Shown: positions 1 to 32,000 of the stretch, in pieces | Layout of the letters: each line of letters starts with the position of its first letter | How positions within the stretch are numbered: position 1 is the first letter of the stretch | Assembly: GCA_000503875.1 (NCBI GenBank) | Contig: CP006913.1 | Coordinates: forward strand, 480,001-512,000 | Length of the DNA: 32,000 nucleotides | Reading direction: 5' to 3' | Source of the DNA: Candidatus Saccharimonadota bacterium | GTDB lineage: Bacteria; Patescibacteriota; Gracilibacteria; Absconditabacterales; Absconditicoccaceae | Position numbers and translations under genes: made by a program | The notes under the pieces: generated by a model | Told to the model about the DNA's origin: nothing | The model's input: the letters and a program-made list of their open reading frames with translations, nothing else | Database searches by the model: none

Positions 1-401
1 ATTAAAATTTGTTTATAAATTTTCTTTGCGAAAATTTGCTTTTAAAATAATCCTCGTTATACTTTATACGAAAGAATGAATGTAAGGATATCGGAATATT
101 GTATATATACTACTAATTCCCTGATATTATCTACAAATAGGATGGCCACCCAAAACAAAAACAAAATCTAATACTATTTACCCCTTAGACAGTGGCGCCA
201 ACATTTTATTTCCCTGGATATTATTCATAATTACGTATTATGTATGTGGTCAAAATCTGATTATCTCCACCAGTGAGATAGGCATCGCTTGCAACACATT
301 GCTTTCATGTAAAATTTGTTATCTGCACGGTAATCCAAACCCAAGGATTAAGAAAGTGTATCAGTATCTGGTACCACCACAAGACATCAAATTTTCTATT
401 A

Positions 402-434
402 GACCGTAGCGTTATTGGACCTACGGTCTTTTTT
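402..434 (+). terminator. Rho-independent terminator-like hairpin
   Basis: GACCGTAG (402-409) pairs with CTACGGTC (421-428) and is followed by T6 (429-434). It closes a ~400-bp stretch with no convincing ORF. Confidence 0.7.
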
Positions 435-501
435 GTTGATTTGAAAAGAAAAATAGATAAATAGAACATAGCCACTATTTATATACCTAACCAATGTAAA
501 A

Positions 502-945
502 ATGTGTATATTTTGCAAAATTATTTCAGGAGAAATACCGTCTTACAAGATATGGGAAAACGATAAATTTATAGCAATTCTCGATATTTTTCCAAATTGT
601 AAGGGACAAACATTATTGATTCCCAAAAAACATTATGAATCAGATTTATTTAATATTCATGACAAAGAACTCTATAAAGATGTTATTCTTGCTACTGATG
701 ATGTAGTCCAACTTCTAAAAGCAAAACTTAACGTACAGAGAGTAGGAATGATTATGGAAGGAATGGGTGTAAATCATCTCCATATCAAACTTTATCCTAT
801 GCATGGAATAGAAGAAGACTGGAAACAAAATATTTGATGAGAACAAGTATTTTTCGAAGAATATCCAGGATATCTCACGACAGAAATAGGTGAACAAGCC
901 GACTTCCAAGATCTAGCCAATATCCAAAGACAAATAAAAGAGTAG
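502..945 (+). CDS. HIT-family (histidine triad) hydrolase, 147 aa
   Basis: ATG at 502. N-terminus is MCIFCKIISGEIPSYKIWEND, with an NHLHIKLYP triad-like motif. The standard-code ORF ends at tandem TGAs (835-840), but the frame continues to TAG 943-945. Confidence 0.8.
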
Positions 946-1009
946 TTGACTTTTATGTATAAATGGTTATATATTGGTTTGTTCTATGTTTTATATATAA
1001 TAGATAAAA

Positions 1010-1783
1010 ATGACCGTAGAAACCATTTCTATCAACGAACAAATGCAAATAGAAACGAAAGAATCTAAAGATTCTACTTTTTGGAAAAATGAAATAATAA
1101 AGTATATAGAAAAAGCAAAAATAGATACCCACAAACGAAAACCAACGTTAGAAAAAGAAGATGATATATTAAATGATATTCGAAAAAATATTCAGAATTT
1201 AGCAATGCAAGCAAAAAGTTATTATATCCATAAAAAGAATACTCAGAAAATAAAATTTGAAGTTGGAAAAAGAGATTTTCCAGAAAAATTTAGAGAAAAA
1301 GTTATAAAAAAACTCAATAAAAAACTTTTCCAAATAAACGCTGAAGATATTAAAAATGAATTAGAAAGAGCATATCAAAAAGAGCATCAAAAAGAAATAC
1401 ACCAGTACCAAAGTATAGAAGAAAAATGGAGAAGATTAGAACAAATGTGTATCCGATGAAGCAAAAAAAGAGCGATAAGAACGTTAGTAAATGGAAGTCT
1501 TTTTAAAAATTTAATAAATCAACCAGAAAACAATCGTTTCACCTATACAACAAAAACAAGCAAAAAGCTTTATGATGTTGTAGTATTAGGTAAAGAAACA
1601 GTAAATGATAAAACTATATATCAGCTAGAAATGGCAGAGGGAAAACCATTAAAATTTGCTGTATCAATGGATAAAAATCAAGAGGAGCACTTCTTTCAAA
1701 CAAGCAAAAATACCTCAACAATAGAATGATTACAAGAAATAGAAGACACTATATACAATTTCCTCAACAAGATCCCTTGATAA
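1010..1783 (+). CDS. Hypothetical Lys/Glu-rich protein, 257 aa
   Basis: Open frame from ATG 1010 through in-frame TGAs (e.g. 1457-1459, 1778-1780) to TAA 1781-1783. A terminator follows immediately. No recognisable motif. Confidence 0.6.
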
Positions 1784-1799
1784 GTAAGGGATTTTTTTT
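1772..1799 (+). terminator. Rho-independent terminator
   Basis: ATCCCTT (1772-1778) pairs with AAGGGAT (1786-1792), followed by a T-run (1793-1799). It overlaps the stop codon of the 1010..1783 CDS. Confidence 0.75.
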
Positions 1800-1831
1800 A
1801 TAAAACGGATAATTTACTATCAATAAAATAT

Positions 1832-2437
1832 ATGAAACACTACGTTGTACGAGAGGGAAAAACCCCTTGAATTTATGATTCACGAGATAATTGTTTACCC
1901 AATGTTTCTTGATTTTCTGGTGCAAAATACAAATCATTTAAGACCAAACAAGAAGCAGAAATAGCATACAAAAAACCGTATACAGAATATTACGAAACCA
2001 AAGAGAAAAAAAACTGGAAAACAGGTGATTTTCCTTTTGAAAAAAATAGTATTGCAGTTGATGCTGCTTGTAGCGGAAACCCTGGTGAAGTTGAATACCA
2101 AGGAGTTGACCTCATCACAGGAAAAACACTTTTTCACAAAAAATATCCTTTGGGAACCAATAATATAGGGGAATTTTTGGCTTTGGTTGAGGGTCTTAAA
2201 TATTTACATAACATTAAATCTGATCAATATCTTTATTCAGACTCCAAACACGCTATCAGTCGAATTTCACAAAAGAAATGCAAAACAAAATTAGAGAAAC
2301 TCCCATGAACAGAGAGGATTTTTGTGGCAGTACAAGAAGCAGAGGAGCGACTCCGTCAAACTAATCCCTCCACAAAAATCCTCAAACGACATACCGATGA
2401 ACGAGGTGAAATTCCCGCTGATTTCTGAAGAAAATAA
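1832..2437 (+). CDS. RNase H1-type hybrid-binding domain fused to an RNase H-like domain (viroplasmin/RNaseH family), 201 aa
   Basis: After recoding, the N-terminus reads YVVWEGKTPGIYDSWDNC...GFSGAKYKSFKTKQEAE (HBD/Cauli_VI-like). The core has AVDAACSGNPG and NNIGEFLALVEGL. The C-terminus reads ILKWHTDEWGEIPADFGRK. It contains 4 in-frame TGA and 5 CGA codons. Confidence 0.85.
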
Positions 2438-2518
2438 AAATAAATTATTAAAATAATAAATATCATTGATTTTATTGATAAAATATATATAATAATAAAA
2501 ACAACTAAAATAAAAGAA

Positions 2519-2647
2519 ATGAACGAAAAAATTAGATTAATTCCTGAACTTTCAATAGAAATTCCTTTAGGAATGAGCGACGAAGAAGCAATTGGAAGAA
2601 CTGTATGTAGTCCTGGAGGACTTGTAAGGTTTTATGATCCTTTTTAA
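2519..2647 (+). CDS. Small stand-alone ORF, 42 aa (MNEKIRLIPELSIEIPLGMSDEEAIGRTVCSPGGLVRFYDPF)
   Basis: ATG 2519 to TAA 2645-2647. It sits behind an AT-rich promoter-like stretch and ahead of a strong terminator. No homology recognised. Confidence 0.3.
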   Translation: MNEKIRLIPELSIEIPLGMSDEEAIGRTVCSPGGLVRFYDPF

Positions 2648-2666
2648 CAAGGTATCAAATTTAATT

Positions 2667-2695: not shown

Positions 2696-2727
2696 GTAAG
2701 AAAAAAATCCCTAGCAATCTCACAACA

Positions 2728-2908: not shown

Positions 2909-4669
2909 ATGACTGAAATTACTTTCAAAGACTTAGGGCTGTCTTCAAGAGCTCTAGAATGATTAGAAAAAAAATGATTTAAAATTCCTTCTCCTATCCA
3001 AGCCGAGGTTATTCCTTTGTTGATTGCCAACAAAAAGAATATTATAGGACAAGCTGCTACAGGAACAGGTAAAACAGCTGCTTTTTGATTACCTTTAATT
3101 GAAAATCTTAAGCACGAAAATCACATTCAAGCACTTATTTTGGTACCAACAAGAGAATTAGCCGTACAAGTTGCTGAAGAAATAAATTCATTACAGTATC
3201 CAAAGAACCTAAGTATTGTTGCTATTTACGGAGGACAATCTTATGAAATTCAAAATAGAGCTCTCAAAAAGGGAATAGATATCGTAGTAGGTACACCAGG
3301 AAGAGTTATGGATCATCTCAATAGAAGAACATTAAAAATAGAAGAGATCAAATATTTCATTCTTGATGAAGCGGATGAAATGCTCAATATGGGATTTATT
3401 GACGATATTGAAACAATTTTCAAACAAACAAATCCAGATAAAAGAGTATTGTTGTTTTCTGCAACTATGCCAAGAGAAATTCTTTCTGTTGCAAAAAAAT
3501 ACATGGGAGAATATGATCTTGTAGCCATCAAAAAAAATGAAAACATAACTGCCCTTACCGAACAATTCTATATTCAAATCAGTGAAAGAGATAAGTTAGA
3601 AGCACTATGTAGAATTATGGATAAAGAAGATGATTTTTATGGAATAGTGTTTTGTAAAACAAAATTGGACGTAGACCATGTTTTTGCTAGACTTCATGAA
3701 AAAGGATACAGTACCCAAGCACTTCATGGTGATGTACAACAAAAGCAAAGAGAAAATATCCTTAAATTATTTAAAACTAAAAAAACCAAAATTCTGGTAG
3801 CAACCGACGTTGCGGCTAGAGGAATCGACGTAAACGATATTTCTCACGTTATCAATTTTGGATTACCACAAGATCCAGAAAGTTATGTGCATAGAATTGG
3901 AAGAACAGGAAGAGCGGGAAAGACAGGAACTGCAATTACTTTCGTAACGCCTAGCGAATATAGAAAATTCGTATTTTTCCAAAAAGCGACAAATAATACC
4001 GTAAAAAAGATAGAAATCCCTGCAATAGCCCACGTTATTGAAACAAAAAAGAAGAAATTAAAAGCAAATATAACAGAAATGTTGGAAAAAGGGGCTCATG
4101 AAAAATATCTAACTATAGCTCAAGAGCTTTTACAAGAAAGAGAAGCTGATCATGTGCTTGCTGCATTATTGAGAATAGCTTATTCAAACGAATTTAACGA
4201 AGAACATTATACTACTATAGAAAAAACTTCTTCATCAGTAAATACTCCTGGAGAAGGAAAAGCAAGAATATTTATCGCTTTAGGAAAAACAGCTGGATAT
4301 TATCCAAAAACTATGGTAGATTTTATTACCGAAGAAACAGGTGTCCCTTCAAGAGAAATCGATGACGTAAGAGTTTTAGAAGATTTTTCATTTATCACCG
4401 TACCTGAATATCAATCTGAAGTAGTAATTAAAACGCTAAAAGGAACAGCAAGCAGAGCCAAAGACGATAAAGGTAGCTGAAGTGGAGATAGATGAGGAAG
4501 AGGATGATTTAGAGGTTGAAGCAGAGGAGGAGATAGATGAGGAGACAGAGGATGATTTAGAGGTTGAAGCAGAGGAGGAGATAGATGATGATTTAGAGGT
4601 TGAAGTAGATGAGGAGATAAAAGACCAGAAAGAAGTTGAAGAACATTTGAAAAAGGACCAAGAAAATAA
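2909..4669 (+). CDS. DEAD-box ATP-dependent RNA helicase (CshA/DeaD-like) with DbpA-type RNA-binding domain and C-terminal RGG tail, 586 aa
   Basis: Motifs found: [19 protein letters not shown] (the G of FGLP is TGA 3086-3088), [23 protein letters not shown]. The track ORF 3140..4480 is the central fragment. The frame runs through 12 further TGAs to TAA 4667-4669. Confidence 0.95.
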
Positions 4670-4815: not shown

Positions 4816-5517
4816 ATGCATTATCCAAAACATGTAGCTGTTATTCCTGATGGGAACAGAACTCGAGCCAAAGAGAACAATGTAAGTATTCCTGAAGCAT
4901 ATTGGGTATCTTACCAAAAAGGAGTTGATATGTTAGAATATACATTTACAAACACTGATGTTAGTGTTTTTACTCTACGAGGATTAAGTACAGAAAACAC
5001 AGCAAAAAGACCACAAGAAGAATATGATTTCCTTATGAATATGTATAAACAAGTAGATAGTAAATTAGATGAAATCTTAGAAAAAAATCAGATTAATTTT
5101 ATGCGAATAGGAAATCCAGCATGAGTTACTGACGGATTCAAGAATTATCTCAATGAAAAAAAAACAAGATTTAGCTATCCAACAAATAAACGATTTGTAT
5201 TTGCTATAAATTACGGGTGAAGAGATGAGATAACAAGAGGAATTCAAAAATTAGCTCAACAAGGTATGGATTTGAGTAATGTTACCGAAGAAGATATTAC
5301 TGCTGCACTAGATTTGGGGCATATACCTCCTATTGAACTAGTAATTAGAACAAAATGAGATCAAGCTCAAAGAACATCTGGATTTATGTCTTGGTGGATT
5401 GGATATGCAGAATTATATTTTACTGCAAAAAGATGTCCAGAATTAGATATTCCAACATTTAAAGAAGCTCTTGCTTGGTTTGATACTATGGCAGAAAAAC
5501 GTAATTTCGGAAAATAA
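4816..5517 (+). CDS. uppS: Undecaprenyl-diphosphate synthase (cis-prenyltransferase), 233 aa
   Basis: HVAVIPDGNRT[CGA]AK matches the DGNxRWA motif. Also LSTEN, AINYGGRDEI (G is TGA 5218-5220) and RTSGFMSWWIGYAELYF. Confidence 0.9.
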
Positions 5518-6687: not shown

Positions 6688-6708
6688 TTTTATTTTTTGA
6701 AAGCTTAT

Positions 6709-7326
6709 ATGAAAAAAAAATGATTCACTTTGCTAGAACTTATTATGGTAATAGGAATCATTTTGGTACTTATAGTAAGCTTTAGAAATATTTTCGAAAA
6801 TAATAATAAAGATTTTTTATATGCAGAAACATGTATAAATAAAGTTCATGGAGATATGAATAATTTTATCTATTCTGCAATGACAAGTAGAGGATTATAT
6901 ATTACAACAGGCACAATATTTCCTTTACAATATACTATTTCCATTTTACCTGACAAAGAAATTCACCTACGATATAAAGATCAAAATAATAATACATGAA
7001 CATATATAAGACATGATCTTTCTTCAACAGGAACATTGAGCCAATCATACTGTAGAACAAATAATTATACCACAAAACTTAGTTGAAGTGCTTTTAATAT
7101 AACGATAAATAAAGCATCTCTGCAAGATCAGACACTACCTACATTTACCATAAATGATGGTCAAGAAATATTCACAAAAACTACAGAAATGTATCTTTGT
7201 TATACAGGAAATCTTTGCAAAGAGATAGCTAATTTTATAACCGATATTAGAACACAAACTATCAAAAAAAAGAAATGTATTCTGATAAATAAAGAATGAG
7301 CAAATTGTTTACAACGAGATCAATAA
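6709..7326 (+). CDS. Type IV pilin / pseudopilin-like protein with prepilin N-terminal cleavage-methylation motif, 205 aa
   Basis: The N-terminus MKKKGFTLLELIMVIGIILVL is the class III signal (G|FTLLE). The cleavage-site Gly is TGA 6721-6723. The C-terminal part has Cys pairs. Confidence 0.8.
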
Positions 7327-7329
7327 GAC

Positions 7330-8154
7330 ATGAAACAATCAGACTTATTGTTATATGAAATTATGAATTATCCTATTCCTAAGCATTGGGAATATTTTAG
7401 TACAGAAAAAAAACAAGATTTTAAAAGCGATACAGATCAAAAATTTTCTCGAGATCATGAAAATCCTTTATTGGAAGAATATCGTATCCATATCAAAAAA
7501 CATCAAAAGATTTTTCAGTCACTGCCTTGGATAAAAAGCATCTATCTATGTAACTCAATTAGTTTCAATTCACTTCATCCGTGATCAGACATAGATCTAT
7601 TTATTATAACTCAAAAAAAATGTTTACGACGTGCAAGATTAGCTAGTGCCATAATATTTTTTGTATTAGGACTCAAAAGAAGTAAAGGGAATACCAATAA
7701 AAAATATTGCTTAAGTTTTTATATAACTGAAGAAGCACAAAATTTATATACAATAAGCTTGGAAAACACAGATATTTATCTTGCTTATCGGTTAGCTCAT
7801 CTTGTACCTATTTATCAAGATACTATTGAGAAAAAAACTATCTATGAACAAAATCAACGATTGTTTTCATTATTACCAAATCTTCCAAAAGATCATCATA
7901 GTATAAATTTAGGCCTACCTATTTATCATGGGAATACAAAAATAAAAACAATAATAGAAAAATATATAGGGTGAGTGATTTGACATATTGTAGAATATAT
8001 GATAAAAACATTACGAGTACCAATACTTATATATAAGATCAAAAAACTAAAAGAAATCTGAAAAGATATAATTTTTAGCAATACTATGTTAAAATTCTAT
8101 CACGATAAGAGAAAAAAAATTTCTTTACTCTATAGATCAAGATTTACTAAGTAA
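7330..8154 (+). CDS. Nucleotidyltransferase-fold protein of unknown function, 274 aa
   Basis: Track fragments 7330..7584 and 7759..7974 share a frame. The GSDIDLFII motif (G is TGA) is typical of Pol-beta-type NTases. Ends at TAA 8152-8154. Confidence 0.6.
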
Positions 8155-9681: not shown

Positions 9682-10830
9682 ATGGTTATACAAGAAATCA
9701 ATCCAGAATTTATTCCAGGAGCTAAAATTAAAATTTTAGGAGTAGGTGGATGTGGAAATAAAGCATTAGATAGAATGATAACTGAAGGTTTGGAATGAGT
9801 TGGTTTTGTAGCTATCAATACTGATGCTCAAGATTTAGCAAGAAGTCTTGCTGATACAAAAGTAAATATTGGACTTAACCTTACAAAAGGTCTTTGAGCA
9901 GGAGCAAATCCTGAAATAGGAAGAAAATCTGCTGAAGAAAGTGAAATGGAGGTTAAATCAGTACTTCAAGATACCGATATGGTATTTATTACTTGTGGAC
10001 TTTGAGGAGGAACAGGAACTGGAGCTGCTCCAGTAATTGCTACTATAGCAAAAAATATGGGAATTCTTACTGTAGGAATCGTAACCAAACCATTTAGTTT
10101 TGAAGGAAGAAAAAGAGAAGCAAACGCTGAAGAAGGACTAAAAAAGATGAAAGAATCAGTTGATACACTTATCGTTATTCCAAACGACAAAATTTTCACG
10201 GTTATCGATAAAAAAACAACATTCAAACAAGCTTTCACTATGATTGATAAAATCCTATTCTTAGGAGTTCAAGGAATATCTGATCTTATTGTAAAACCAG
10301 GAGATATTAATATCGATTTTGCAGATATCAAAGCAGTTATGACAGATTCTGGAAATGCATTATTGGGAATCGGTTACGGAGCTGGAGAAAAGAGAGCAGT
10401 AGATGCCGCAAGAAAAGCTATCGAAAATCCATTATTAGAAACAAATCTTGATGGAGCAAAAAAAATAATTTTTGCTGTTTCTGGAGGACATGACCTTACT
10501 CCTACGGAAGTAAGAGAAGCTGCAGCTGTTGTTGAAGAAATCATTGATCCTGAAGCTAATTTCTTCTGGGGAATGACTTTCGATGAAAGTATGGAAGATG
10601 AAGTAAAAGTAACTATTATAGCTACAGGTTTCGAAGAACAAAGTAGAGATCAAATACTCAAAACCCCAAAAAGAGATATGCTTGGAAGATCTATCAAAAG
10701 AGAATCAGAGAATTTTATTACAAGATTGACTAAACAAGAAGTAAACACAAACAATGAAGAAACTATTGATTTAGATGCAGAAGAAGATATAGAAACTCCA
10801 GCATTTATTAGAAGATCTTTAAATAAATAA
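9682..10830 (+). CDS. ftsZ: Cell division GTPase FtsZ, 382 aa
   Basis: Motifs: [31 protein letters not shown] (G is TGA 9895-9897) and the tubulin signature [10 protein letters not shown] (first G is TGA 10003-10005). C-terminal peptide [10 protein letters not shown]. Confidence 0.97.
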
Positions 10831-13489: not shown

Positions 13490-14074
13490 ATGGAAAACAT
13501 TACAATCATCAAAGACACAACAGCCAATCCAGCACCAATGGGGTTATTGGGATTTGGAATGACTACTATTCTCCTGAATATTCATAATGCAGGATTTTTC
13601 GAACTCAATGCTATGATTATGGGTATGGGAATTTTTGTTGGATGAATTATGCAAGTTATTGCAGGTATCCAAGAACGAAAGAAGAATAATACCTTTGGTG
13701 CAACGGCATTTACTGCATATTGATTTTTTTGGATAGCATTAGTAACTACATGGTTACTACCAAAGACAACTATGCTCGTAACAAAAGCAGATGAACTTTC
13801 AATGGGATTTTTCTTAGCAATACGAGGTTTATTTACACTATTTATGTTCATTGGAACACTCAAAATAAATAGAGCATTACAAGTAGTATTTGGTTCTTTA
13901 ACAATATTGTTTGCTCTCTTGGCAATAGGAGATTTTACAGGAATTGCTCTTATCAAAACTATTGCTGGATACGAAGGAATCTTTTGCGGAATATCAGCTA
14001 TCTATGCATGTGCTGCACAAATTTTAAACGAAGTATATGGTAAAAGCGTATTACCTCTAGGAAAAGTTAAATAA
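13490..14074 (+). CDS. satP: GPR1/FUN34/YaaH-family acetate/succinate channel, 194 aa
   Basis: [33 protein letters not shown], and LAI[CGA][13 protein letters not shown], which aligns with E. coli SatP LGLWGVFTLFMFFGTLK. The track shows only fragment 13772..14074. Confidence 0.9.
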
Positions 14075-18751: not shown

Positions 18752-19630
18752 ATGAACAAACTCACTACTCTCCTCTCCAAAGTATCATTGGCCAAAGTTG
18801 AAAAGTATATTACCTTATTCATCTATTATATTCTTCCTGTAATAGTTATTATAACACTTATCTCTGCAATGCTAACAACAAGTAATGTGTGATTTTCACG
18901 ACAAGAATTTCGAGGAAACCGATGATGGAACCTATTGATTATTGTTCTCTTTATAAAACCTATCACTTTCTTAGGGAAAAAATATTTCAAAGCCGAATCT
19001 ATAACACTTGAATACTTTATACAAATACTAAAAGACTTACCAAAAACTATCAAAAATAATCAGAAAAATTTCGATAGTCAGATGATACATAGCCATATTA
19101 TTCCTTTTATTGTAAATAGTTTCTATAGTATATCTCTTTATCTTATGAGATTTAGAAGACCACTAGGAATAGCAACATTCTGGCTTCTCTTCACTCATGG
19201 ACTTTTATGGCAAACATTTCGAATAAGACAAGGATTCTCTTTTGGATTTAACATAGGAGAAACAGCAATATTATCAGGAATGATAACTCTTTTGGCACTA
19301 GTTATAGGAGCAATTACATCAAATGATTATGCTATGCAAAAACTCCAAAAAAATCGAAAAAAAGTACAAATGATAGCTTATATTGCATTCTTTTTTGCTG
19401 CAATTCATACAGGAAATATCTTTTGGCTCATCGTTTACTTTGTAGCTAAATACTTCGAACGAAGAGATACAGGCATGTTAAAAGAACGAAAAATCTGGAT
19501 TATTCACCAAGCAAACACTATCAAAAACAACAAACGAATACAAAAACAACGAAACGCTATCAAAAATAACAAATCAATAACAAAAATCATGGATAAAATA
19601 CATTGATTTGCCAGCAAATTTCTCAAATAA
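18752..19630 (+). CDS. Ferric-reductase-like transmembrane domain protein (MsrQ/YedZ-like), 292 aa
   Basis: MRFRRPLGIATFWLLFTHGLLW and N[CGA]KKVQMIAYIAFFFAAIH resemble the two His-bearing helices of YedZ-type haem proteins. Extends track ORF 18935..19606 on both sides. Confidence 0.6.
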
Positions 19631-19697: not shown

Positions 19698-21644
19698 ATG
19701 CAAATCATCTCAGCAAACATTTCAAATATATTAAGTTTTCCTTATCAGGAACAATTTTCTGAAGAAAGAAAAATCCATTTTGATGTCAATAAAAAATGAT
19801 GATTAAACATTTTGATAGGTCCAAACGGATCAGGTAAAACGAATTTTTTGGAAATTATTACACAACTCATAAAAGTAGGATTAATCAAAGATTTCGTATA
19901 TACAGAAAATAATGGTATTCAAAACAGTATAATAGAAAATCAATGGCCACTAGAAAATATGATTCCTCATTTTTCTTATCAAGACAAACCATCAATCGTA
20001 GATATGGAATTTCATGTATCCGAAAATGACAAAGAAAATATGTTATTTATCCAAAAAAAACAAGAAATATTTTCAAAAATTATCGAAACATATTCAACAA
20101 CAAAATATAAGATTCCTGTATGTGATATAGAAAAAATCAAAAATCTTCAAACACTCCATATCCAATTCACTATAGACACAACAAATAAAACCGCACATAT
20201 TAGCAATAAATCCAAAAATAAAATTGAAAATTTTGCTATAGAATACCTAATATATCAAGAACTATTTCAAATAGCAATTATGATATATAACAACAATATT
20301 AAAAAATCTGATGAATTATGACGATATCCTTTAAAAAATACATTTGGACACCTTCATAACACAAGAAATTTCTATCATCTCAAAAAAGATATAGCGCAAC
20401 ACAATCTTCGAGACGATTTTATTAGCAAAAAAAATTACAGAGAAAATAATTCCTTATTGGGATATGCTTTATGCATCAAAAAGCTTCATAATATTATCAC
20501 ACATACTTCCGAGGAAAATAGAGATCAGAAGGAAGATAATTATAAACTAACAGAAGAAAATATTGAAAAAAAATTAGAAAATTCCCTTTTTTATACATCA
20601 CTCAAAAAGAGTATCAAAAAATATCTAAATCTTGAATTAAAAGTATCATACAAAAACGAACATATAGAACTTTATTTTATAAACACAACCTGACAAGAAC
20701 AAACACTTCATAGTATCAGTAATTGAGAACAATCATTACTTATTATATTACTTACTATTTATGGATTTGATCTCAAAGATGGTATACTTATTATTGATGA
20801 ACCTGAACTTCATTTTCATCCTCAAATGCAAAGAAGACTAGCAAAAATGTTAGAAAAGCTCAATCACAATATCGGTACACAGTGTATTATATCAACATAT
20901 TCCCCTATTTTTATTGATGAGAAAAACATTACTAACGTATATAGATTTAGCAAAAAAAGTTGAGAGACTCAAGTAAGAATACCAGATAAAACAATATGAC
21001 ATGATGAATCAAGCCTTATTCAGATTCTTAAATTTGAAAATGCAGCTAAAATATTTTTTGTAGATAAAATTATTATGGTAGAAGGAGAAATTGACGCTTA
21101 TTTCTTTGAACACTATTTGCAATATCTTCACAACTTACCGCAAGGAAAGTGAAAAGAAGTTATAACCAATTATGAAATTATCAATATCAACGGCAAAGGA
21201 TCTTACAAAAAGCGAAGTGCTTTTCTCAAAAAATTCTGAATAGAATCATATTTTATAGGAGATTGGGATAATATCGTAGATTACGGTTTTATCAGTCAAC
21301 AAGATCTTAATTTTTACTATAAACAAGCAAAAACATTTTATCATACCCACAAAAAAGACAAAGAAACAACAGATCGTTACTACGCAAAATTAGTAAATGC
21401 GGTAAAATATCTATATCCAAACAAATATAGCTCAATTTTGGAAAAAATAGATTTTCTTTATACAAAAAACGTTTTTATTTTAAAAAAAGGTGATATAGAA
21501 ACTTACCTTGGTATACAATCAAAATGATTAGAAGAGACTATAGCTTTTTGCCATAACTTCTTTGACGTGCGGTTACAAAACAAAAATTTAGCTGAACACA
21601 GAAAAGAACTAGACCATATTCTATTTACTATTTTTTCCCAATAG
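19698..21644 (+). CDS. OLD-family nuclease: ABC-type ATPase plus C-terminal Toprim domain, 648 aa
   Basis: Walker A LIGPNGSGKTNFLE; ABC signature SISNGEQS (G is TGA 20724-20726); Walker B ILIIDEPELHFHP. Toprim Glu in IIMVEGEID and DxD in FIGDWDN. Three track fragments plus gaps form one frame, ending at TAG 21642-21644. Confidence 0.85.
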
Positions 21645-22326
21645 CATTAACATCAAGAAAATCTGTATGATTATGATGATAAACGTGCTGATTAACAGGT
21701 TGTTTTTTTTCTGGAATTATTACTTTTTGCTGGTCTGAAACAGTCATTCATTCAGATAACTTTGACAGATATTGATCTAAATCAGTAATAGCTATCTCTT
21801 GTATTTTTTTCTTAAGATGAATTATTAGAAGATCTTTTTCTCTAACTATTTTATCTTTTTCCATAATAAGAAAAAACATTTTATTTACGACTTCTCTTAA
21901 AATTTTTTGATTTTTTTCTTCCAAAGATCAAATAACACTATCTTTTTGTTGTAATAAAAAATCTTTTTCTTTAATAAGATTTAATATTTTACCATCTAAA
22001 AGCTTTTCCAATGATTCTTCAAAATCAAAAGAAAAATCATTAGTTTCCTTATTTCAAGAAGTATTTCTATCATATAAATCAAAACAAACATCTTTCATTA
22101 AACAATCCATTTCTTCTTTAAATTTAGAAACTTCTCTAATTACTTCCCTAGGAATAGCTTCTTTTTGTGAATTCTTTACAATATCTTGTATTTTTTGGTC
22201 TTTAATATAAGCCAATTCCTGTCTAAATTTAAACCATTGAAAAAATCTTATGATAAGTCCTATCAAAAGAAAAAAAAGTAAAATTCATGAGAAAATAAGC
22301 CAAAAATCAAACCAATCTATTTTCAT
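21628..22326 (-). CDS. N-terminally membrane-anchored coiled-coil protein, 232 aa
   Basis: MKIDWFDFWLIFSGILLFFLLIGLIIRFF is a TM segment, followed by a heptad-rich Lys/Glu region. I checked triplet by triplet and found no in-frame TAA/TAG on the minus strand. The 3' end overlaps the OLD gene by 17 nt. Confidence 0.6.
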
Positions 22327-22393
22327 AAAAAAAGCTTAAAAGATAAACTCCTTTAAGCTGTTATATATATTAGTAACAAAAAGTCAACTACTT

Positions 22394-22957
22394 CTATTTA
22401 AAAAACAAAAATCAAGCAATAATAAGAAATACTAATGTTAAACCTATTAAAATCAGATTTATAAGTTTTTCATTTTTAATAGAAGATTTTAATTGAGAAA
22501 TTTTTTCTTCAAGCTTTTGTTTTTCTATAATAGCTTCTTGTTTTTCTCTTGTATAATCAGGCAAAGCTACCATATTTTGAATTTTAGTTTCTAATTCTCC
22601 TACTCTTTGCTGTAAAACGAAGATAATTTTATTCTTTTCTTCAAGCATTTTATCTTTTTCTCTAAAAATCAAGAAAAATTTTTCTAATTTTTGTTCTATC
22701 ATGGCTTCCAATTGTGGATTTGATTTTGCTAGTCCTGTTGATGATGAAGATTGACTAATAACTTCAGTTTCTACTTCTTGATGTAAAGCAGAAAAATCCT
22801 TTTTAAGATCATATACCTCCCCTTTTTCCAACAATACTTTGTTAGCAACTTTTTTATATGAAAGTTTTCCACTTCTGATATATCTATCTATTGTTCTTGT
22901 AGAAATACCAAGTAATTGCGCCGCAGCTTCTCTAGTAATAGTATACACTTTTGCCAT
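22394..22957 (-). CDS. Excisionase/MerR-type HTH protein with coiled coil and C-terminal membrane anchor, 187 aa
   Basis: The N-terminus YTITREAAAQLLGISTRTIDRYIRSGKLSYKKV is an HTH_17-like motif. It has a central coiled coil, and the C-terminus LINLILIGLTLVFLIIAGFLFFK is hydrophobic. Confidence 0.7.
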
Positions 22958-22978
22958 TTATAAATACAAAAAATAAAA

Positions 22979-23227
22979 TTATAAATTAAATTTTTGCGGT
23001 TCTTGTTTTTTTATATCATCAATAAGTGATTTAACATACAAAACAATCAAACAGCCTTCTAAAACACCAAGAAAAAGCATTATAGGATAAATTCCTACGA
23101 AGGTCCATTCACTATTAAAAAACGCAATAGCACCTGTTTGAACTCAGATGTTTTGGAAATAAGGAATCCAAAGAAGAATAAAGATTATAACAATAAACCA
23201 TAAATACGTTACATTTCCTTTTTTCAT
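22979..23227 (-). CDS. Small two-TM membrane protein (LapA/DUF1049-like), 82 aa
   Basis: MKKGNVTYLWFIVIIFILLWIPYF...FVGIYPIMLFLGVLEGCLIVLYV, then a charged tail. Its start lies 5 nt after the stop of the upstream gene. Confidence 0.5.
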
Positions 23228-23231
23228 TTTT

Positions 23232-23612
23232 TTATATTTTTTTAACTAAAAAATAAACAAAACTCAATAAACATGAAAGAACAAAAACCTGAACTACATT
23301 TCACAAGATAATATATATTCAAAGATCAAGATAGTTAACAAATTGTTCGAATACATATAATAGAACAAAATTTAGAATCAAAGAAAATATACCAAATGTT
23401 AATGCAGAAATAGGTAAAGTAAGTAGTCCAAGAATTCATTTAAGAACAATATTAATAAGCCAAGAAATTATTCCCAAAAAGAGATAAATAATAATATCAT
23501 TAGCGTATTCTGATTGCAAAGAAAACCCTAGTCATGGAAAGTAATGAGCCATAACATAAAGTAATCCAGATCCAAAGACAACATACAAAACAAAATGTTT
23601 GATATATTTCAT
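23232..23612 (-). CDS. Phage-holin-superfamily-IV / YvlD(DUF360)-like membrane protein, 126 aa
   Basis: Four hydrophobic segments with the family-typical ILGLLTLPISALTFGIFSLILNFVLLYV core. Confidence 0.6.
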
Positions 23613-23734
23613 TCTAAAAATGAACCGAATAAAAGAATAGATATTTGTCCACTATTTTCAAGACATTTTGTCAACTTTTGTCATCTCAGATAAACAGAAA
23701 GACAAATACAAAGAGATAAGCAACAATATAGACA

Positions 23735-24139
23735 TTAATCCCCAATAATATCATCAAAAACATCTTCTTTTCCATCCTCAAGATACTTATGAATAGCATT
23801 TCTAGAAGCCAATAAAGCAATTACTGCCGCCCTCTTTCTTCTTGGCGAAACTTCAAATCACAAAGAAAGTATTTTAGAATAATCCCGAGTAAGAACTTCA
23901 TGAATATCAATTCAGACAATTATCTCTGACAATATACTTGCAGCAGCCGTTGTTATAGTTGAACAATTACCATCAAAGCTATATGCATGAACAATATTAT
24001 TCTCTATATGAAGATAAACAGTGATATCATCTCAACAAATAAAATTTCCTTCATGTTGTTTGATAGTATAATCTTTCATAGCAAAATTACAGAGTGGGTT
24101 TTTCGCATATTCCTGGATCATTACACTCAATTCTTCCAT
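23735..24139 (-). CDS. NifU/IscU/SufU-like Fe-S cluster scaffold, 134 aa
   Basis: EYAKNPLCNF...NFICGDDITVYLHIENNIVHAYSFDGNCSTITTAAASILSEIIVG fits the xCGD...F.G.GC...A.AS scaffold pattern. Confidence 0.75.
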
Positions 24140-24155
24140 AAAAAAGTATTAAAAA

Positions 24156-24437
24156 TTAAACGTAATCAAGTCTAATAAATAGATGATTAACCAGTTGTTT
24201 CAATAAGAAAATAAGTTTATTACTAAGCTCTATAAATCATTTTACACAGACAATTTGAAATTCTTGAATTTGATGAGCTATTTGTTGAACAGACAAGAAA
24301 AACTTATTAGAATTGATTTCTAGAACAACATCATAAAAAGAATCCTCACAACAAGAGAAAGTTGCTTTGATATTCTTGAGATAAACTGTTCTTTGTTGGA
24401 GAAAATCTTGATCCATAAGAGTTTTTTGAATAATCAT
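24156..24437 (-). CDS. Hypothetical protein, 93 aa, likely co-transcribed with the scaffold gene
   Basis: Track ORF 24237..24437 extends through a TGA to TAA (plus-strand 24156-24158). Its stop lies 16 nt upstream of the scaffold-gene start. Confidence 0.45.
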
Positions 24438-24592
24438 TCAGTCAACAAAAAAATAAAGGTGAATTTTTTGTATCGTTTTACCCAAAAATTACAACAGAAA
24501 ATTTATTAGAATTTTAAGAGAAAAATCGTCTTGATTTTTATGGAAATATCATTATTTTTTTACAAAGGATTTTATCGGTAATAAAGCGTTAT

Positions 24593-25360: not shown

Positions 25361-26202
25361 GAGGATTTTTTTAGAGAACGATACATAAGAAAAATTCCTA
25401 TAATAAAGAAAAGGACAAAAAACCGCTGACTCTTAGTTAAAAAAGCTACATATTCTGATTGACTATCCATTCTTAGATATTCTAAGAAGAATCTTACGAA
25501 TGAGTACCAAACAAGAAAAAAAGATGACAGAAAGCCAATAGTTCGTCTGTTTTTTTTCAAAGAAACAAATAAAACAATACTAGAAAATAGTAAAACAACA
25601 AACCCCTCAAAAAAACTAGCCAAAAAATTAGTATTTATTCTCAAAAATCAATCAACACGGTCATAAATATAAAATAGATGAATATACGAAAAAAACGATA
25701 CGATATGAGATCAAAGAGATGGAAAAACATCAGTAACCAAACGTCCATATAATTCCTGATTTAAAAAATTACCAATTCTTCAAAACATTATTCCAAATGA
25801 AGTAGGCAAAATAAGTAAATCTGCCAAAGTCCAAAAATCACGAAAAGAAAATTTATATTTACGAATAATAAATAATAAAGCGGTTATAACTCATAAAATA
25901 CCACCTATAAATGACATTCACCCCTCCCAAATAGCAAAAACGCGTAAAGGATGTTCTAAGTAATAACTAAAATCATAAATAAAGATATGTCCTAATCTTC
26001 ATCAAACAAGAAGTCATAAGACAGTATACAAAACAATATCCTCTGGAGATTTTTGTAATAAACTATAAAAACCTGGAGCATATTTTTCAAAAAAAGAATA
26101 CCTTTTAATATACATAAAAAACAGATATCCAGCAAGAAAAGCAAGAAAATAGAAAATACCATACCAATAAATCGAAATTCAAAACAAAGAAAAAGCTACC
26201 AT
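25348..26202 (-). CDS. lgt: Prolipoprotein diacylglyceryl transferase, 284 aa
   Basis: GGRLGHIFIY, IWEGGMSFIGGILG, FGRIGNFLNQELYG, VRFFLEYLR. Several of the Gly residues are TGA-encoded. Confidence 0.9.
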
Positions 26203-26989: not shown

Positions 26990-27010
26990 AATAATATTAT
27001 TAGAAATAAA

Positions 27011-28090
27011 TTATTGCATTACATTAACCATATCTGCCATAGGAATAAATATAGATCCTACAACTATTCAGATAATAACAGCAATAAATGCCATCAAAAA
27101 CGGTTCCAATAAAGCAAGGAGCATATCTATTTTATTCTGAAGCAATTCACGATAAAATGTGGATATTCTTTTTAGTACATCTGCCATATTTCATGTATTT
27201 TCTCAAACACTAATAATCTGTATCAAAATAGGATCGAAAAGTGTTGATCATTCCATAGATTCAGCCATTCAAAATCCAGATTTCATATCACTTTGAATTT
27301 CCAATACCTTCTTTTTATAATGAAAATTAGAAAAAACATTAGCTATAAGCTTTAAAGAGACAACAGGACTTATTCCCCCACTATATAATTGTCAAAGTAA
27401 TTTGGAATATCTATACATATGAAATGTTTTAACAACATCAGAAACAACAGGTACGCTAATCAATATTTTATCTATGATAATTTTAAACGGTAAGAAAAAT
27501 TTATATAATAACGTATATGAAGAATATATTCATCCTACTGTTAAAAGAATTACATACCAATAATTTTTAATAAAATCTGAAGTATCTAACATAAAAACAG
27601 TTATTGAAGGCAACGAATCCTGACTAGGAAACATTCCAACTATAGTAGGGATAACAAAAAGAAGGAGGATAACGACAGCTATAATAGAGAACGAAAGCAA
27701 AACCATAGGATAAGTACTTGCTTTTTTGATTTTTTGATTAATTTTTTGTTCATTTTCCAAATCTTCTGATATTTCCTCAAGTACATCTGGTAAATTTCCA
27801 ATAGCTTCAGCCGATGTAATAAGTGATATTTCTTCTTCTTTAAATATATACATATGATTACGTAATGTAGAAGAAAAATTAACTCCTTGATTAAGTTGTT
27901 CTATCATATCATCAATAATATACAGTAGTCCAGCTTGTTTTTCTGTCTTTTTTATAGAAATCAAAGAATCTCTAATTCCCAGACCTGCTTTTTGTGATAA
28001 TGCAAGCAATCTAAAAAAATTCGTTTTATTTTTTAAACTTGGTGCATTAAATCTAATATATAATCATTGTAATAATTCTCAAATAGACAT
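27011..28090 (-). CDS. pilC: Type II secretion system F-family / type IV pilus platform protein, 359 aa
   Basis: Two GspF repeats (SLITSAEAIGNLPDVLEEIS...; LIQIISVGENTGNMADVLKRIS...) and three TM segments. Track ORF 27530..28009 is the internal fragment. Confidence 0.85.
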
Positions 28091-28117
28091 AGATACAATA
28101 GGTAATTAAAATTAAAG

Positions 28118-29434
28118 CTATTCTGCTTTTGTTTTTACATTTTCATATACTTCTTGAAGCGTAATATGTCATTGAATTGCTTTAAAAACACCATCTCTTT
28201 CAAGATTAATCATTCCATGTTGAAGTGCATATGCTTCTACTTCAAAAGCAGATTTACCTGCCAAAAGAAGTGTTTTGAGATCATCTGTATAATCCATCAT
28301 TTCAAAAAGTCAGATTCTTCATTTACATCAAGATCAATGACAAACAGGACATACTAATCATGTTTCTGGATCTTTTCCAGTTCCCGTCATAATCATTCCT
28401 TCGTTAATAAAAGAATTTCGTTGTTCTTGTGTTATATTTCTACTAATGATTTCTTTTTTCAAAAGCTCTGGAATAATATTTTTAAAACTAGATACTGCAA
28501 AACGATGTTGAGGTGTTCCTTTTACAGAAGTTGCTTGTTTACAATGATAACATACTTTTCTTGCCAATCTTTCTGCCATAACAAGATTAAAAGTACCAGC
28601 CAACATATACGGCTTTGCACCAAGATTAAATACCCTAGTAATAGTTTCAGCTGATGAATTTGTATGTATTGTAGAAAATACTAAATGTCAGGTCATAGCA
28701 GCTTCCATAGCCATATCCAATGTTTCTCTATCACGGATTTCTCACACCATAATAATATCTGGATCTTGTCTCAGCGCTCATCTCAAACCATTTGCAAAAG
28801 TAAATCAAATATCAGTTCTAACCTGAGCTTGATTTAAACCAGGCATTTTATTTTCGACAGGATCTTCATAGGTGATAATATTTACTTCTGGTTTATTAAT
28901 ATAATCAAGAGCAGCATACAATGTTGTTGTTTTTCCAGATCCCGTAGGACCAGTCATCAAAATAATTCCATTAGGATAATCCAAATGTTTATTGATAATA
29001 TCCTTATTAGAACCATCAATTCCAAGTTCATGCAAAGGAGGAATTTTTTTTGATTTATCTACAATACGCATTACCAATTTTTCTCACCAAACCGTAGGTA
29101 ACGTATTTGCACGAAGATCTATTTCTTTATTTGTTTGTGTTATACTAGAAACTCTAGCATCTTGTGGAAGCCTTTTTTCATCAGGCCTCATTTGACCAGA
29201 CTCAATTTTGAATTTAGAAATAATACTTTCATGAAGATTTCTAGGAAATTGCATCAATTCTTCTAAAATACCATCAATTCTAATTCTAATTCTAGAATAG
29301 TTTTCCAAAGGTTCTATGTGAATATCAGATGCTCACTCCTCAACCGCGACGGTCAACAAGTTATCAAAAATTTTAACAACATCTGAGTCTACAATAGCTT
29401 GCGTTAGTCTTTGTCTATAATCAACAGTAACCAT
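28118..29434 (-). CDS. pilB: Type IV pilus / T2SS assembly ATPase (GspE/PilB family, short form), 438 aa
   Basis: ASDIHIEP, Walker A MTGPTGSGKTTTLYA, Asp box, Walker B DPDIIMVGEIRD, His box TGHLVFSTIHTN. Tetracysteine motif CYHC...CPVCHGSGCKGRIG. Assembled from four track fragments. Confidence 0.92.
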
Positions 29435-29619
29435 ATACGAACATACGTAAAATAATAAAATACATACAATAGATATTCATCTAAGTATATTCAGAAAGCT
29501 TTTAAAAAACAAAAAATCTGACTATCAATTACTATATACACTTGCTTTTTGGGGTAAAAGTGATTAAATAAGGTTTTATATACATTTCAAAACAATTATT
29601 TTATCCACAACGTCGAAAA

Positions 29620-30003
29620 ATGAATAGAGAACGAACGCTTATTTTCTGAATTATTATTGGACTTCTCATAGGATATCTCATAGCAAGAATATATTTTTTT
29701 ATAAAAATAAAACACCAACGCCAAGATGCAGTTACAAGATCTCGCAATGTTGTTCTTGGTAATGTAAACGAAAAAATAGCTCCCCTTCTCCCAGGTTTTC
29801 CTTATCATTACAAGGATTTAATGTTTTTGGGGAAATGAATAGATTATATTGTTTTTGACTGATTAAGTCATTGAAATTTAACAAAAATAGTTTTCCTTGA
29901 AATTAAAACTAATTCCTCTACCCTCAACAGAAATGAAACAATGATAAAACAATGTATCGAACAAAAAAAGGTTGAATATCAAATTTATAGGAAGATAGTT
30001 TAA
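29620..30003 (+). CDS. Membrane-anchored Holliday-junction-resolvase-like endonuclease-fold protein (PF10107-like), 127 aa
   Basis: N-terminal TM segment, then KDLMFLGKGIDYIVFDG...IVFLEIKTNSSTLNRNE, which fits a D...E-x-K nuclease-fold pattern. The last 15 nt overlap the tRNA. Confidence 0.55.
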
Positions 30004-30059
30004 TGGTAAAATACAAGACTCCGAATCCTGTGTTGTAGGTTCGATTCCTACTCTTCCTG
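29989..30059 (+). tRNA. tRNA with anticodon CCG on a tRNA-Trp-like body (candidate CGG-to-Trp decoder)
   Basis: Hand-folded cloverleaf. Acceptor AGGAAGA/TCTTCCT; D stem GTTT/AAAT with loop AATGGTA. Anticodon stem CAAGA/TCCTG (one A-C mismatch) with loop CTCCGAA (CCG at 30021-30023). Variable region TGTT; T arm GTAGG-TTCGATT-CCTAC; discriminator G; no encoded CCA. Confidence 0.9.
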
Positions 30060-30159
30060 AATAGCAAATAAATATTGACATTTTAAATGTAAAATAAAAA
30101 GAGATATAGATAAAATTCTATATATAAATACAATTTTTTACCAAAAAATATGTCTACAT

Positions 30160-30843
30160 ATGTCCAAATTAAAACAAATATTTACATATATAAAGAGACT
30201 TTTCCCCGATCCAAAGACTGAATTAATATATAATATGCCATTTCAATTAGTAGTAGCTGTAATATTATCAGCTCAGACAACTGATATACAAGTAAACAAA
30301 GCAACTTCAAATTTATTCAAAAATATATATACTCCCCAAAATATAATACAAATATGACAATCAAAATTAATAAAGTCAATATCGTCAATTAATTACTATA
30401 AGACCAAATGAAAAAATATATTTCTCTTATCTAAGCTTATTGTAGACAGTAAAAAAGTAAAAGATTTATGAATAGAAAAATGGAATACCTACGAGGATAA
30501 AAATAATATATATTTTATACCCAACACAATAGAGGGACTTAAAAAATTGCCTTGAATTTGAGAAAAAACAGCAAAAGTAGTAGCTCATGTATTATTTTGA
30601 GCACCAGTTATTGCAGTAGATACCCATGTTCATAGAGTATGTAATAGATTATGAATAGTTTCAACAAAAACTCCTGAACAAACTTCAAAATTACTTGAAA
30701 ATATTATTCCAAAACAATACAAATCAATTGCTCATCATAGTATAATCCTCTTTTGAAGATATTATTGCACAGCCAAAAAACCCAAATGTGAAACATGCGA
30801 ATTACAAAGCATCTGTAAACGATATCAATCAATTAAAAAGTAA
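30160..30843 (+). CDS. nth: Endonuclease III (DNA glycosylase/AP lyase), 227 aa
   Basis: LVVAVILSAQTTD; HhH motif LPGIGEKTAKVV...DTHVHRV. The Fe-S cluster loop is CTAKKPKCETCELQSIC. Confidence 0.9.
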
Positions 30844-30926
30844 GTCATTGCACTTGTGTCCCATAGAACAAGCATTAAAGTAACAATTCATATATTATAA
30901 AACTTTTTATCAATTATCATATATTT

Positions 30927-31541
30927 ATGAATCTTATTGAACCAAAACGATGACTTGAATTAGTTCTATCTCTTCATCAAGCAATGCTTTCATCGCAACT
31001 ACGAACAGTTCTTACTCCAACACTAGCTGATGTTTTCGTATTCAGTTACCCTATCTATCTAATAGTTCTTTATAGTATAGGACGAATTAAAAAACAGATC
31101 AGTTATAAAGTTGCATCGCTCTGGATTTTTGCCAATGTGGTTGTTACCACTCTGGTAAACATAGGAATCCAAGCACTTGTCCAAAAATCCAGGCCAAATA
31201 TTGTCCTCTGATTAATTGATGAGAAAGTAGAAACTGTTCTTCATAAATTTTTACCTACAAGTAGTTTTCCTTCTGATCATGCTGCAGTTTCTATGAGTAT
31301 AGCAGTAGCAACATTCCTTCGATGAATACAAAAAAAAGACAGGAAATATATCTATTTTTCAATTATCTTATTCGTTTTTAGTTGTATTATGTGTGTATCT
31401 AGAATAGCTACCGCTGTACATCGACCAACAGATATTTTAGGTGGGATTTTGGTAGGGGCCATCATTCCTCTACTTCTTAGCACAAAAAAAATCTCCTCAT
31501 TTGGAGAGAAGATTTCTTTATGGATAGGAAAGAAAATTTAA
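30927..31541 (+). CDS. PAP2-family phosphatase (undecaprenyl-diphosphatase/BcrC-like), 204 aa
   Basis: The three PAP2 motifs are present: KSRP, PSDH and SRIATAVH[CGA]PTD. Multiple TM segments. Confidence 0.8.
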
Positions 31542-31555
31542 TTACTACTAATCAT

Positions 31556-32000
31556 TTAACTAGTTTTTTTCGCTTCATAATCTACTTTCAATTTACTATC
31601 AGCAAACGACACTTTTATAGTATTACTCGTATCATGACTAAATACTAAAATACCATTGTCTACTTTCATTTTAGTCATGTTTTTTATATTATCCAAAACC
31701 TTATCTCATAAGGTTATTTTACTTGCATCTTTTCATTGAAGATATACAAGCATATTTCTGAAATGCATAGGATCTTTTATAAAATCCAGAGTCGCAATAG
31801 TTGTTTCAGTTGTGATAGATTCTAACAACATATTAAAATTACTTTTAATAACTCATTGGCCTTTATCAAAATCAAACAATTGACTCATTGGAGCTAAAAC
31901 ACCTTTCTGATATTTTGATATAGGAGTATCTGTTTCTGAACTATCATATGTATACAAATCATCAATTTTTTTGAATTCATAATTTCCATATTTATCACTC
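31556..32000 (-). CDS. Hypothetical protein, C-terminal 147 codons (5' end lies beyond the window)
   Basis: This is the only minus-strand frame free of TAA/TAG across 31559-31999, with the stop TAA at plus-strand 31556-31558. No motif recognised. Confidence 0.5.

Follow-up and report, generated by a model that had tools for sequence, protein, structure and literature searches.

Predicted reading of TGA as glycine and of CGA and CGG as tryptophan in a 32,000-nt stretch of an Absconditabacterales genome

The window, as we call the whole 32,000-nucleotide (nt) stretch of bacterial DNA that was analysed, probably uses the doubly altered genetic code of the order Absconditabacterales, in which UGA encodes glycine, CGA and CGG encode tryptophan, and translation stops at UAA and UAG; we give this reading a probability of about 0.9. 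The evidence comes from protein-profile scores, columns of solved structures, codon exchange with related loci, and a transfer RNA (tRNA) gene with the anticodon CCG that lies in the window itself. Both reassignments are already known and have been published for this very genome, GCA_003543185.1, by Shulgina and Eddy in 2021 (eLife 10:e71402; PMC8629427), who predicted for the Absconditabacteria a change of CGA and CGG to tryptophan on top of the change of UGA to glycine. The window confirms these reassignments rather than discovering them, and the only additions made here are the evidence on CGG for this genome and a gene order that points to the duplication of a tRNA-Trp gene.

Judged by FtsZ identity, synteny and published listing, the window is assigned to the order Absconditabacterales (candidate division SR1). 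Its sequence is 100% identical to part of the metagenome-assembled genome (MAG) GCA_003543185.1, namely contig DPJE01000003.1 (462,027 bp) at about 123,433-155,432, and a second match is a contig of 288 kb (ERZ936476 k127_922976) from an assembly of the sediment metagenome SRR944699. The nearest relatives by FtsZ are all SR1/Absconditabacteria MAGs, with identities from 94% down to 61% across 80 loci and with synteny conserved, and GCA_003543185.1 stands in the Absconditabacteria sheet of Shulgina and Eddy (PMC8629427). The lineage named in a first-pass annotation, which had worked from the sequence alone, is thereby borne out for SR1/Absconditabacteria. At NCBI, GCA_003543185.1 carries the name "Candidatus Gracilibacteria bacterium", and many of its SR1/Absconditabacteria relatives are labelled "Peribacteria".

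TGA as a sense codon

The read-through of TGA is real and goes far beyond chance. Open reading frames (ORFs) of at least 100 amino acids (aa) cover 39% of the window under translation table 11, 88% when TGA is taken as a sense codon, and 47% when TAG is read through instead, whereas first-order Markov shuffles give a mean coverage of 7% and a maximum of 11%, and contain no ORF longer than 190 aa, the longest in the unshuffled window being 648 aa. When ORFs were called with TAA and TAG as the sole stops and reduced to a greedy non-overlapping set, 40 ORFs were obtained, with a coding density of 90% and 9561 codons, among which are 162 in-frame TGA. At least one TGA is present in 37 of these 40 ORFs, and all of them end in TAA (30 ORFs) or TAG (10 ORFs), so that UAA and UAG are the only stops, as in NCBI translation table 25. 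The first-pass annotation had claimed both that nearly every gene of the standard-code track is broken at TGA and that the real stops it could place are TAA or TAG, and both claims hold. Furthermore, when TGA is masked as X, Pfam domains cross the TGA positions at full length (DEAD 1-164 of 167, T2SSE 6-368 of 370, LGT 2-239 of 240, Tubulin 1-189 of 190 and Prenyltransf 1-215 of 219). With this many in-frame TGA, no in-frame TAA or TAG, and ORFs conserved across 80 genomes, gene decay and sequencing error are therefore excluded as the source of the TGA codons.

TGA as a glycine codon

The meaning of TGA, CGA and CGG was assessed by placing alternative residues at the codon and summing the Pfam bit scores for a set of proteins, the Pfam profiles being dominated by organisms that use the standard code. 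For TGA two sets were scored, set A with 16 TGA and set B with 30. In set A the sums are 491.0 for glycine, 472.3 for serine, 466.2 for X, 464.6 for cysteine and 455.6 for tryptophan; in set B they are 600.3 for glycine, 569.9 for alanine, 565.9 for serine, 562.5 for asparagine, 556.4 for cysteine, 555.1 for aspartate and 553.3 for X, with arginine (552.7), leucine (533.2) and tryptophan (527.7) at the low end. Relative to X, glycine gains 24.8 and 47.0 bits in sets A and B, respectively, tryptophan loses 10.6 and 25.6 bits, and cysteine changes by -1.6 and +3.1 bits. The two sets together thus give +72 bits for glycine and -36 bits for tryptophan, which places glycine ahead of tryptophan by 108 bits.

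Individual motifs agree with these sums. The six codons quoted by the first-pass annotation are all TGA on the + strand and lie inside the peptide motifs given for them. Two belong to FtsZ, one in GL[G]AGANPEIG (9895..9897; TIGR00065, 409.5 bits with glycine and 398.7 with tryptophan; brackets mark the residue assigned to the reassigned codon) and the other being the first glycine of the GGGTGTG signature (10003..10005). The codon that follows TGKTAAF in the motif I region of the DEAD-box helicase is a third (3086..3088; CshA model, 520.8 bits with glycine and 513.3 with tryptophan), and a fourth lies in SN[G]EQ of an OLD-family, PtuA-like ATPase (20724..20726; PtuA model, 50.6 bits with glycine and 35.6 with tryptophan). 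The NCBIfam models for FtsZ, CshA and PtuA thus all score higher with glycine than with tryptophan. At the cleavage-site glycine of the prepilin leader KK[G]FTLLE (6721..6723), the model TIGR02532 (IV_pilin_GFxxxE) is matched at 22.9 bits (cutoff 16.3) only with glycine, and there is no match with tryptophan or X. The sixth codon is that of UppS NYG[G]R (5218..5220). The quoted Lgt motifs are likewise TGA on the - strand, with two consecutive TGA in LV[G][G]RLGH (25999..26004) and one in IWEG[G]MSF (25918..25920), and the Pfam LGT score falls from 155.4 with glycine to 133.4 with X and 123.2 with tryptophan.

The solved structures point the same way. TGA52 and TGA78 of SatP align to glycine in both solved structures, and TGA181 of UppS aligns to glycine. 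TGA135 of UppS, the NYG[G]R position, aligns to alanine, glycine, glycine and serine in four solved structures. The earlier claim that TGA falls on invariant glycines is therefore an overstatement, as it does not hold for every quoted site. In DEAD-box proteins, the position that follows TGKTAAF varies as well.

Codon exchange was followed by aligning the codons of the window to 80 related Absconditabacterales loci (1.29 Mb in total), the 14 commonest partner codons being listed for TGA and CGA. Among 1590 pairs, the codons aligned to window TGA are TGA (548), GGA (496), GGT (221), GGC (52) and GGG (41); GGN codons make up 78% of the partners other than TGA, and TGG is absent among the 14 commonest. 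In the lowest-GC relatives (among loci L045-L080, for example L061, L068 and L079) TGA is the dominant glycine codon, reaching 533 per 10,000 codons against 118 for all GGN in L061, and across 60 loci the TGA share of glycine codons follows AT-richness (rho = -0.83 against GC content). The DEAD-box helicase of the window has an RGG/FRGG repeat tail at its C terminus (4469..4669, + strand), which uses TGA for 12 of its 26 glycines, mostly in GG pairs of the form GGN-TGA, and holds 12 of the 15 TGA of the gene.

Pfam likelihood, structural columns and codon exchange in the 80 loci agree, and the assignment of TGA to glycine rather than tryptophan is strongly supported by these sequence comparisons, made both within the lineage and beyond it. 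A check of TGA columns against profiles, proposed with the first-pass annotation and made here with Pfam and NCBIfam, returned glycine as the favoured residue.

CGA and CGG as tryptophan codons

In a genome of 29% GC that otherwise prefers AGA, the window has 65 CGA and 5 CGG, and CGA occurs 70 times per 10,000 codons against 43 for TGG. The Pfam sums at CGA are 504.2 for tryptophan, 490.0 for tyrosine, 486.4 for phenylalanine, 466.2 for X, 466.1 for arginine and 463.2 for lysine, so that tryptophan gains 38 bits over X and arginine gains nothing. The canonical tryptophan columns DGNRRW of UppS and WGxFTLFMF of SatP, which CGA occupies in the window, are tryptophan in every solved structure; the remaining CGA columns in these two proteins are tyrosine, phenylalanine or hydrophobic, and never arginine. 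The codons concerned are that of UppS DGNRT[W]AK (4864..4866, + strand; tryptophan in all four solved structures) and that of SatP/YaaH FLAI[W]GLFTLFMF (13823..13825, + strand; tryptophan in both). Two other examples on the + strand are the N-terminal domain of RNase H1, GIYDS[W]DNC (1883..1885), where Pfam Cauli_VI scores 60.3 with tryptophan, 51.1 with arginine and 48.1 with X, and the PAP2 motif VH[W]PTDILGG (31422..31424), where relatives have TGG (15), CGG (7) and CGA (5).

Codon exchange gives the same result. Relatives at window CGA most often have CGA (316), TGG (181) and CGG (37), followed by tyrosine and phenylalanine codons, and AGA is absent among the 14 commonest codons aligned to CGA in the 80 loci. 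The reverse comparison, at window TGG, yields TGG (174), CGA (64) and CGG (20). Comparative data cover 56 of the 70 CGR sites (R being A or G), and an arginine codon was seen once among them, whereas the AGA, AGG, CGT and CGC codons of the window exchange with arginine or lysine codons only. In a screen of all 64 codons, TGA, CGA and CGG were the sole codons flagged. Composition is in keeping with this: with CGR as tryptophan, tryptophan makes up 1.19% and glycine 6.0% of the residues of the window, the means of the clade being 1.21% and 6.4%, and under table 25 tryptophan would fall to 0.43%. A value near 1.19% is typical for bacteria.

On the evidence of profiles, structures and exchange, CGA is a tryptophan codon in the predicted code. 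CGG behaves as tryptophan too, on thinner evidence than CGA. The Pfam test, which covers two CGG codons, does not single out tryptophan (scores below), and the case for CGG as a tryptophan codon is made by codon exchange and by the tRNA described below. Among 72 codons of relatives aligned to window CGG, TGG (43), CGA (22) and CGG (5) are found, and arginine codons never. The CGG at 7789..7791 (+ strand) aligns to TGG (36), CGA (19) and CGG (5), and that of the NifU-like protein at 23885..23887 (- strand) to TGG (6) and CGA (1). The CGN box is predicted to be split, CGU and CGC being arginine codons together with AGA and AGG, and CGA and CGG being tryptophan codons.

CGR codons make up about 64-66% of the tryptophan codons of the window, and among 60 related loci the median share is 0.50 with a range of 0.04-0.78; the window is therefore typical of its clade. 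About half of the Absconditabacterales loci examined use CGA or CGG for about half or more of their tryptophan codons. CGA is absent from four genes of the window, those of the DEAD-box helicase, DnaN, FtsZ and T2SSF, and in Pfam-aligned columns genome-wide CGA occurs 25 times per 10,000 codons in GCA_003543185.1 (PMC8629427). The new tryptophan codon seems to gather in genes of lower conservation or expression. An avoidance of UGG, with a shift to CGA, brought about by wobble misreading of UGG by tRNA-Gly(UCA) was also considered and found no support, the TGA share and the CGR share showing no correlation across 60 loci (rho = -0.04, p = 0.74).

The tRNA(CCG) gene and its origin

A tRNA gene with the anticodon CCG and Trp-type identity is located at 29989..30059 on the + strand (Rfam tRNA model, 67.3 bits); ARAGORN reports it as tRNA-Arg(CCG) at 29988-30060. 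In the Rfam register it has A1:U72, the discriminator G73, and the D-loop AAUGGUA with U20 instead of A20, and its anticodon stem contains an internal A29.C41 mismatch. The rule of Shulgina and Eddy (PMC8629427) for a Trp-type tRNA is G73 and no A20, with A1:U72 or G1:U72 as support; the tRNA of the window, with G73, U20 and A1:U72, is therefore Trp-type by this rule. Its first 15 nt (29989-30003), AGGAAGATAGTTTAA, are at the same time the last four codons and the TAA of a Holliday-junction-resolvase-like ORF (29620-30003).

All 17 CCG tRNAs, that of the window and those of 16 relatives, have a 5' AGG (AAG in L051), a 3' CCUG or CUUG, G73 and U20, and the same 5' end, 3' end, G73 and U20 are found in the tRNA-Trp(CCA) of the clade. 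Overall identity separates the groups modestly, being 0.63-0.66 to the Trp(CCA) tRNAs and 0.51-0.64 to others, and for this reason the Trp-type class is based on identity elements and synteny.

The gene order PAP2, endonuclease III, tRNA(CCG), Holliday-junction-resolvase-like gene, T2SSE and T2SSF is conserved, and inverted in the window. Beside the endonuclease III gene, two relatives carry tRNA-Trp(CCA) and tRNA(CCG) in tandem (L051, 17511-17827; L058, 7760-7962), five deeper relatives (L045, L059, L060, L061 and L067) have only tRNA-Trp(CCA) near it, and the subclade of the window has only the CCG copy at this site. The most likely source of tRNA(CCG), as this gene order suggests, is a tandem copy of tRNA-Trp(CCA), made at the endonuclease III gene, in which A36 was then changed to G. 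Whether the locus preserves the whole course of a sense-codon capture, in which the CCA gene was duplicated, A36 became G, the CCA copy was later gone from the site in the subclade of the window, and CGR codons spread, is a more tentative proposal, to which we give somewhat less than even odds.

Decoding of the reassigned codons

In the code proposed here, UGA would be a glycine sense codon and termination would be left to UAA and UAG alone. With release factor 2 (RF2) missing, UGA would be decoded by a tRNA-Gly(UCA), as is expected from the lineage: tRNA-Gly(UCA) and the loss of RF2 are attributed to it by Campbell (2013) and Rinke (2013), as cited in PMC8629427. We infer that the tRNA(CCG) of the window decodes CGG as tryptophan, which would require tryptophanyl-tRNA synthetase (TrpRS) to charge it despite G36. 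For GCA_003543185.1, the tRNA counts by anticodon are ACG 0, GCG 1, UCG 1, CCG 1 and CCA 1 (PMC8629427). With one tRNA(UCG) and no tRNA(ACG) listed, CGA is therefore presumably read by the single tRNA(UCG), which would lie outside the window, and CGU and CGC by tRNA-Arg(GCG).

A further possibility concerns the anticodon stem. A survey in Nucleic Acids Research in 2026 (PMC13092985) describes all Absconditabacterales tRNA(CCG) as having 5-bp stems. However, the tRNA(CCG) of four relatives has a U27.U43 mismatch and a 4-bp anticodon stem (L013, 18353-18425; L020, 18461-18531; L021, 18112-18184; L025, 17943-18013), and these stems, as well as the A29.C41 mismatch of the window, are contrary to that statement. 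Under the "extended superwobble" idea of the same survey, a tRNA(CCG) with a weakened anticodon stem might also read CGA.

Several points weigh against the doubly altered code, or against parts of it. First, tRNA-Gly(UCA), tRNA(UCG), prfB (the RF2 gene) and trpS were not found in the window or in about 10 kb of flank on each side, the only tRNAs in these flanks being Thr(GGU) and Cys(GCA), and tRNA(UCA), tRNA(UCG) and prfB were likewise not found in the 1.29 Mb of the 80 related loci. Second, the anticodon is a major identity element for TrpRS in Escherichia coli, and tryptophan charging of a tRNA with G36 is assumed. Third, the meaning of CGG is drawn from only 5 codons, and for the two in Pfam domains, at weakly conserved columns, the scores are 195.1 for arginine, 197.2 for X, 198.8 for phenylalanine, 199.3 for tryptophan and 201.4 for leucine, with arginine lowest and leucine above tryptophan. 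Fourth, five CGA in Lys/Arg-rich tails would read naturally as arginine, and tryptophan is assigned there by extension only; they lie in the EamA ORF 16525-17469 (17353-17376, AHR.NPK.YK.DYTRK) and in the Ferric_reduct ORF 18752-19630 (19487, KE.KIW; 19535, KNNK.IQKQ), the dots marking CGA. Finally, the whole body of evidence is computational, and comparison with relatives is not independent of a code common to the clade.

Alternative readings

An incomplete or ambiguous reassignment, with CGA and CGG mostly tryptophan and partly arginine, or with CGG effectively unassigned or poorly decoded, is unlikely in our judgement, at odds well below one in ten. It draws on the result of Codetta, which left CGG uninferred ("?") for GCA_003543185.1, on the rarity of CGG and the Pfam scores just given, on the missing CGA in the highly conserved helicase, DnaN, FtsZ and T2SSF genes, and on the lower frequency of CGA in Pfam-aligned codons genome-wide (25 per 10,000) than in all codons of the window (70). 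Shulgina and Eddy (PMC8629427) stress that only experiments can exclude ambiguity of this kind. However, the CGG codons of the window align to TGG or CGA and never to arginine codons, throughout the subclade a dedicated Trp-type tRNA(CCG) keeps its place in the gene order, and the tRNAs listed for the genome include no tRNA(ACG), so that no inosine-type arginine tRNA would compete for CGA. The idea that the CGA in Lys/Arg-rich tails keep the meaning arginine was rejected for the sites that relatives cover, which exchange with TGG; the five tail codons given above are not among these sites.

Plain table 25, which reassigns TGA alone, leaves CGA and CGG to arginine and would make the tRNA at 29989-30059 a normal tRNA-Arg(CCG), is the code that NCBI assigns to SR1 and Gracilibacteria and the one named by the first-pass annotation. 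Its UGA as glycine and its stops UAA and UAG stand, whereas the standard meaning it leaves to all other codons fails at CGA and CGG, which behave as tryptophan. The naming of the tRNA by its anticodon as tRNA-Arg in ARAGORN and the CGA in Lys/Arg-rich tails, where arginine looks natural, speak for this reading. However, arginine at CGA scores no better than X (466.1 against 466.2), 38 bits short of what tryptophan gains; CGA falls on canonical tryptophan columns of every solved UppS and SatP structure; CGA and CGG are exchanged with TGG in relatives and with an arginine codon once; the tRNA carries G73 and A1:U72 but no A20; and tryptophan would be just 0.43% of residues. We consider it very unlikely that table 25 is the complete code.

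A reading of TGA as tryptophan (table 4) is scarcely credible, even though UGA to tryptophan is the commonest stop-codon reassignment in bacteria and is also seen in low-GC genomes (PMC8629427), given that hardly any residue, if any, scores lower at TGA than tryptophan, which costs 10.6 and 25.6 Pfam bits, that TGG is missing from the 14 commonest codons aligned to it, and that the prepilin model is matched only with glycine; selenocysteine was rejected with 162 TGA spread over 37 of 40 ORFs and cysteine shifting the two sums by -1.6 and +3.1 bits where glycine adds 24.8 and 47.0, and pseudogenes or sequencing errors are as improbable.

Relation to known codes

The doubly altered code predicted for the window shares with the published Absconditabacterales code the lineage, the three reassigned codons, the low GC content, AGA as the main arginine codon, CGU and CGC as arginine, and a Trp-type tRNA(CCG). 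We note two differences. First, the source table of Shulgina and Eddy (PMC8629427) gives GCA_003543185.1 as UGA = Gly, CGA = Trp and CGG = "?", whereas in the window codon exchange and the tRNA argue for tryptophan at CGG. Second, that work lists 25 CGA, 1.7 CGG and 56 UGG per 10,000 Pfam-aligned codons for this genome, with CGA below 37 in all species, against 70 CGA in the window, probably because conserved columns only were counted there. Two papers from 2026 treat the Absconditabacterales code as established.

NCBI table 25 (Campbell et al. 2013; Rinke et al. 2013) has the same UGA as glycine and the same stops, UAA and UAG only, and differs in keeping CGA and CGG as arginine. The reassignments of CGG to tryptophan in Anaerococcus and in the Bacilli RFN20/Onthovivens (PMC8629427) are alike in the low GC content and in the capture of an arginine codon by a derivative of tRNA-Trp, the anticodon of the captured-codon tRNA being one base from CCA there as in the window. 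However, those lineages are without tRNA(UCG), keep CGA as arginine through tRNA(ICG), and have not reassigned UGA, whereas in the lineage of the window both CGA and CGG would be tryptophan and no tRNA(ACG) is listed. Mycoplasma and Spiroplasma (table 4), whose genomes are likewise reduced and low in GC, also translate UGA, as tryptophan, whereas UGA is read as glycine here. Few bacterial clades are predicted to have reassigned a sense codon in addition to a stop codon, and the lineage of the window is one of them, the two changes having been published in 2021 and 2013, respectively.

Consequences for annotation

Under table 11, almost all genes of this genome are broken into pieces. The gene calls of DPJE01000003.1 in the protein collection searched are fragmented as they would be under table 11, with DnaN given as pieces of 109 and 222 aa, whereas in the European Nucleotide Archive (ENA) the genes of this DNA are called at full length. 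Retranslation under table 25, on the code proposed here, would put arginine at 70 positions, or 64% of the tryptophans of the window, including catalytic or structural tryptophans in UppS, SatP, PAP2 and RNase H, and would leave the Trp-type tRNA(CCG) mislabelled as tRNA-Arg. Under that code, neither table 11 nor table 25 translates the genome correctly.

Other features of the window

The OLD-family nuclease gene (19698-21644; AAA_15/AAA_21 and TOPRIM, PtuA-like) occupies the part of the window where the GC content is lowest (0.26), and small ORFs for membrane, HTH_17 and holin-like proteins are encoded on the opposite strand at 21628-24485. The nuclease region and these small ORFs may form a defence or mobile islet. 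The cumulative GC skew has its maximum at about 17-18 kb, and the genes change orientation at about 21.6 kb. A type IV pilus set (6697-7326 and 27011-29512) consists of a prepilin with the GFTLLE leader, a PilC-like T2SSF protein and a PilB-like T2SSE protein; such sets are typical of episymbiotic Patescibacteria.

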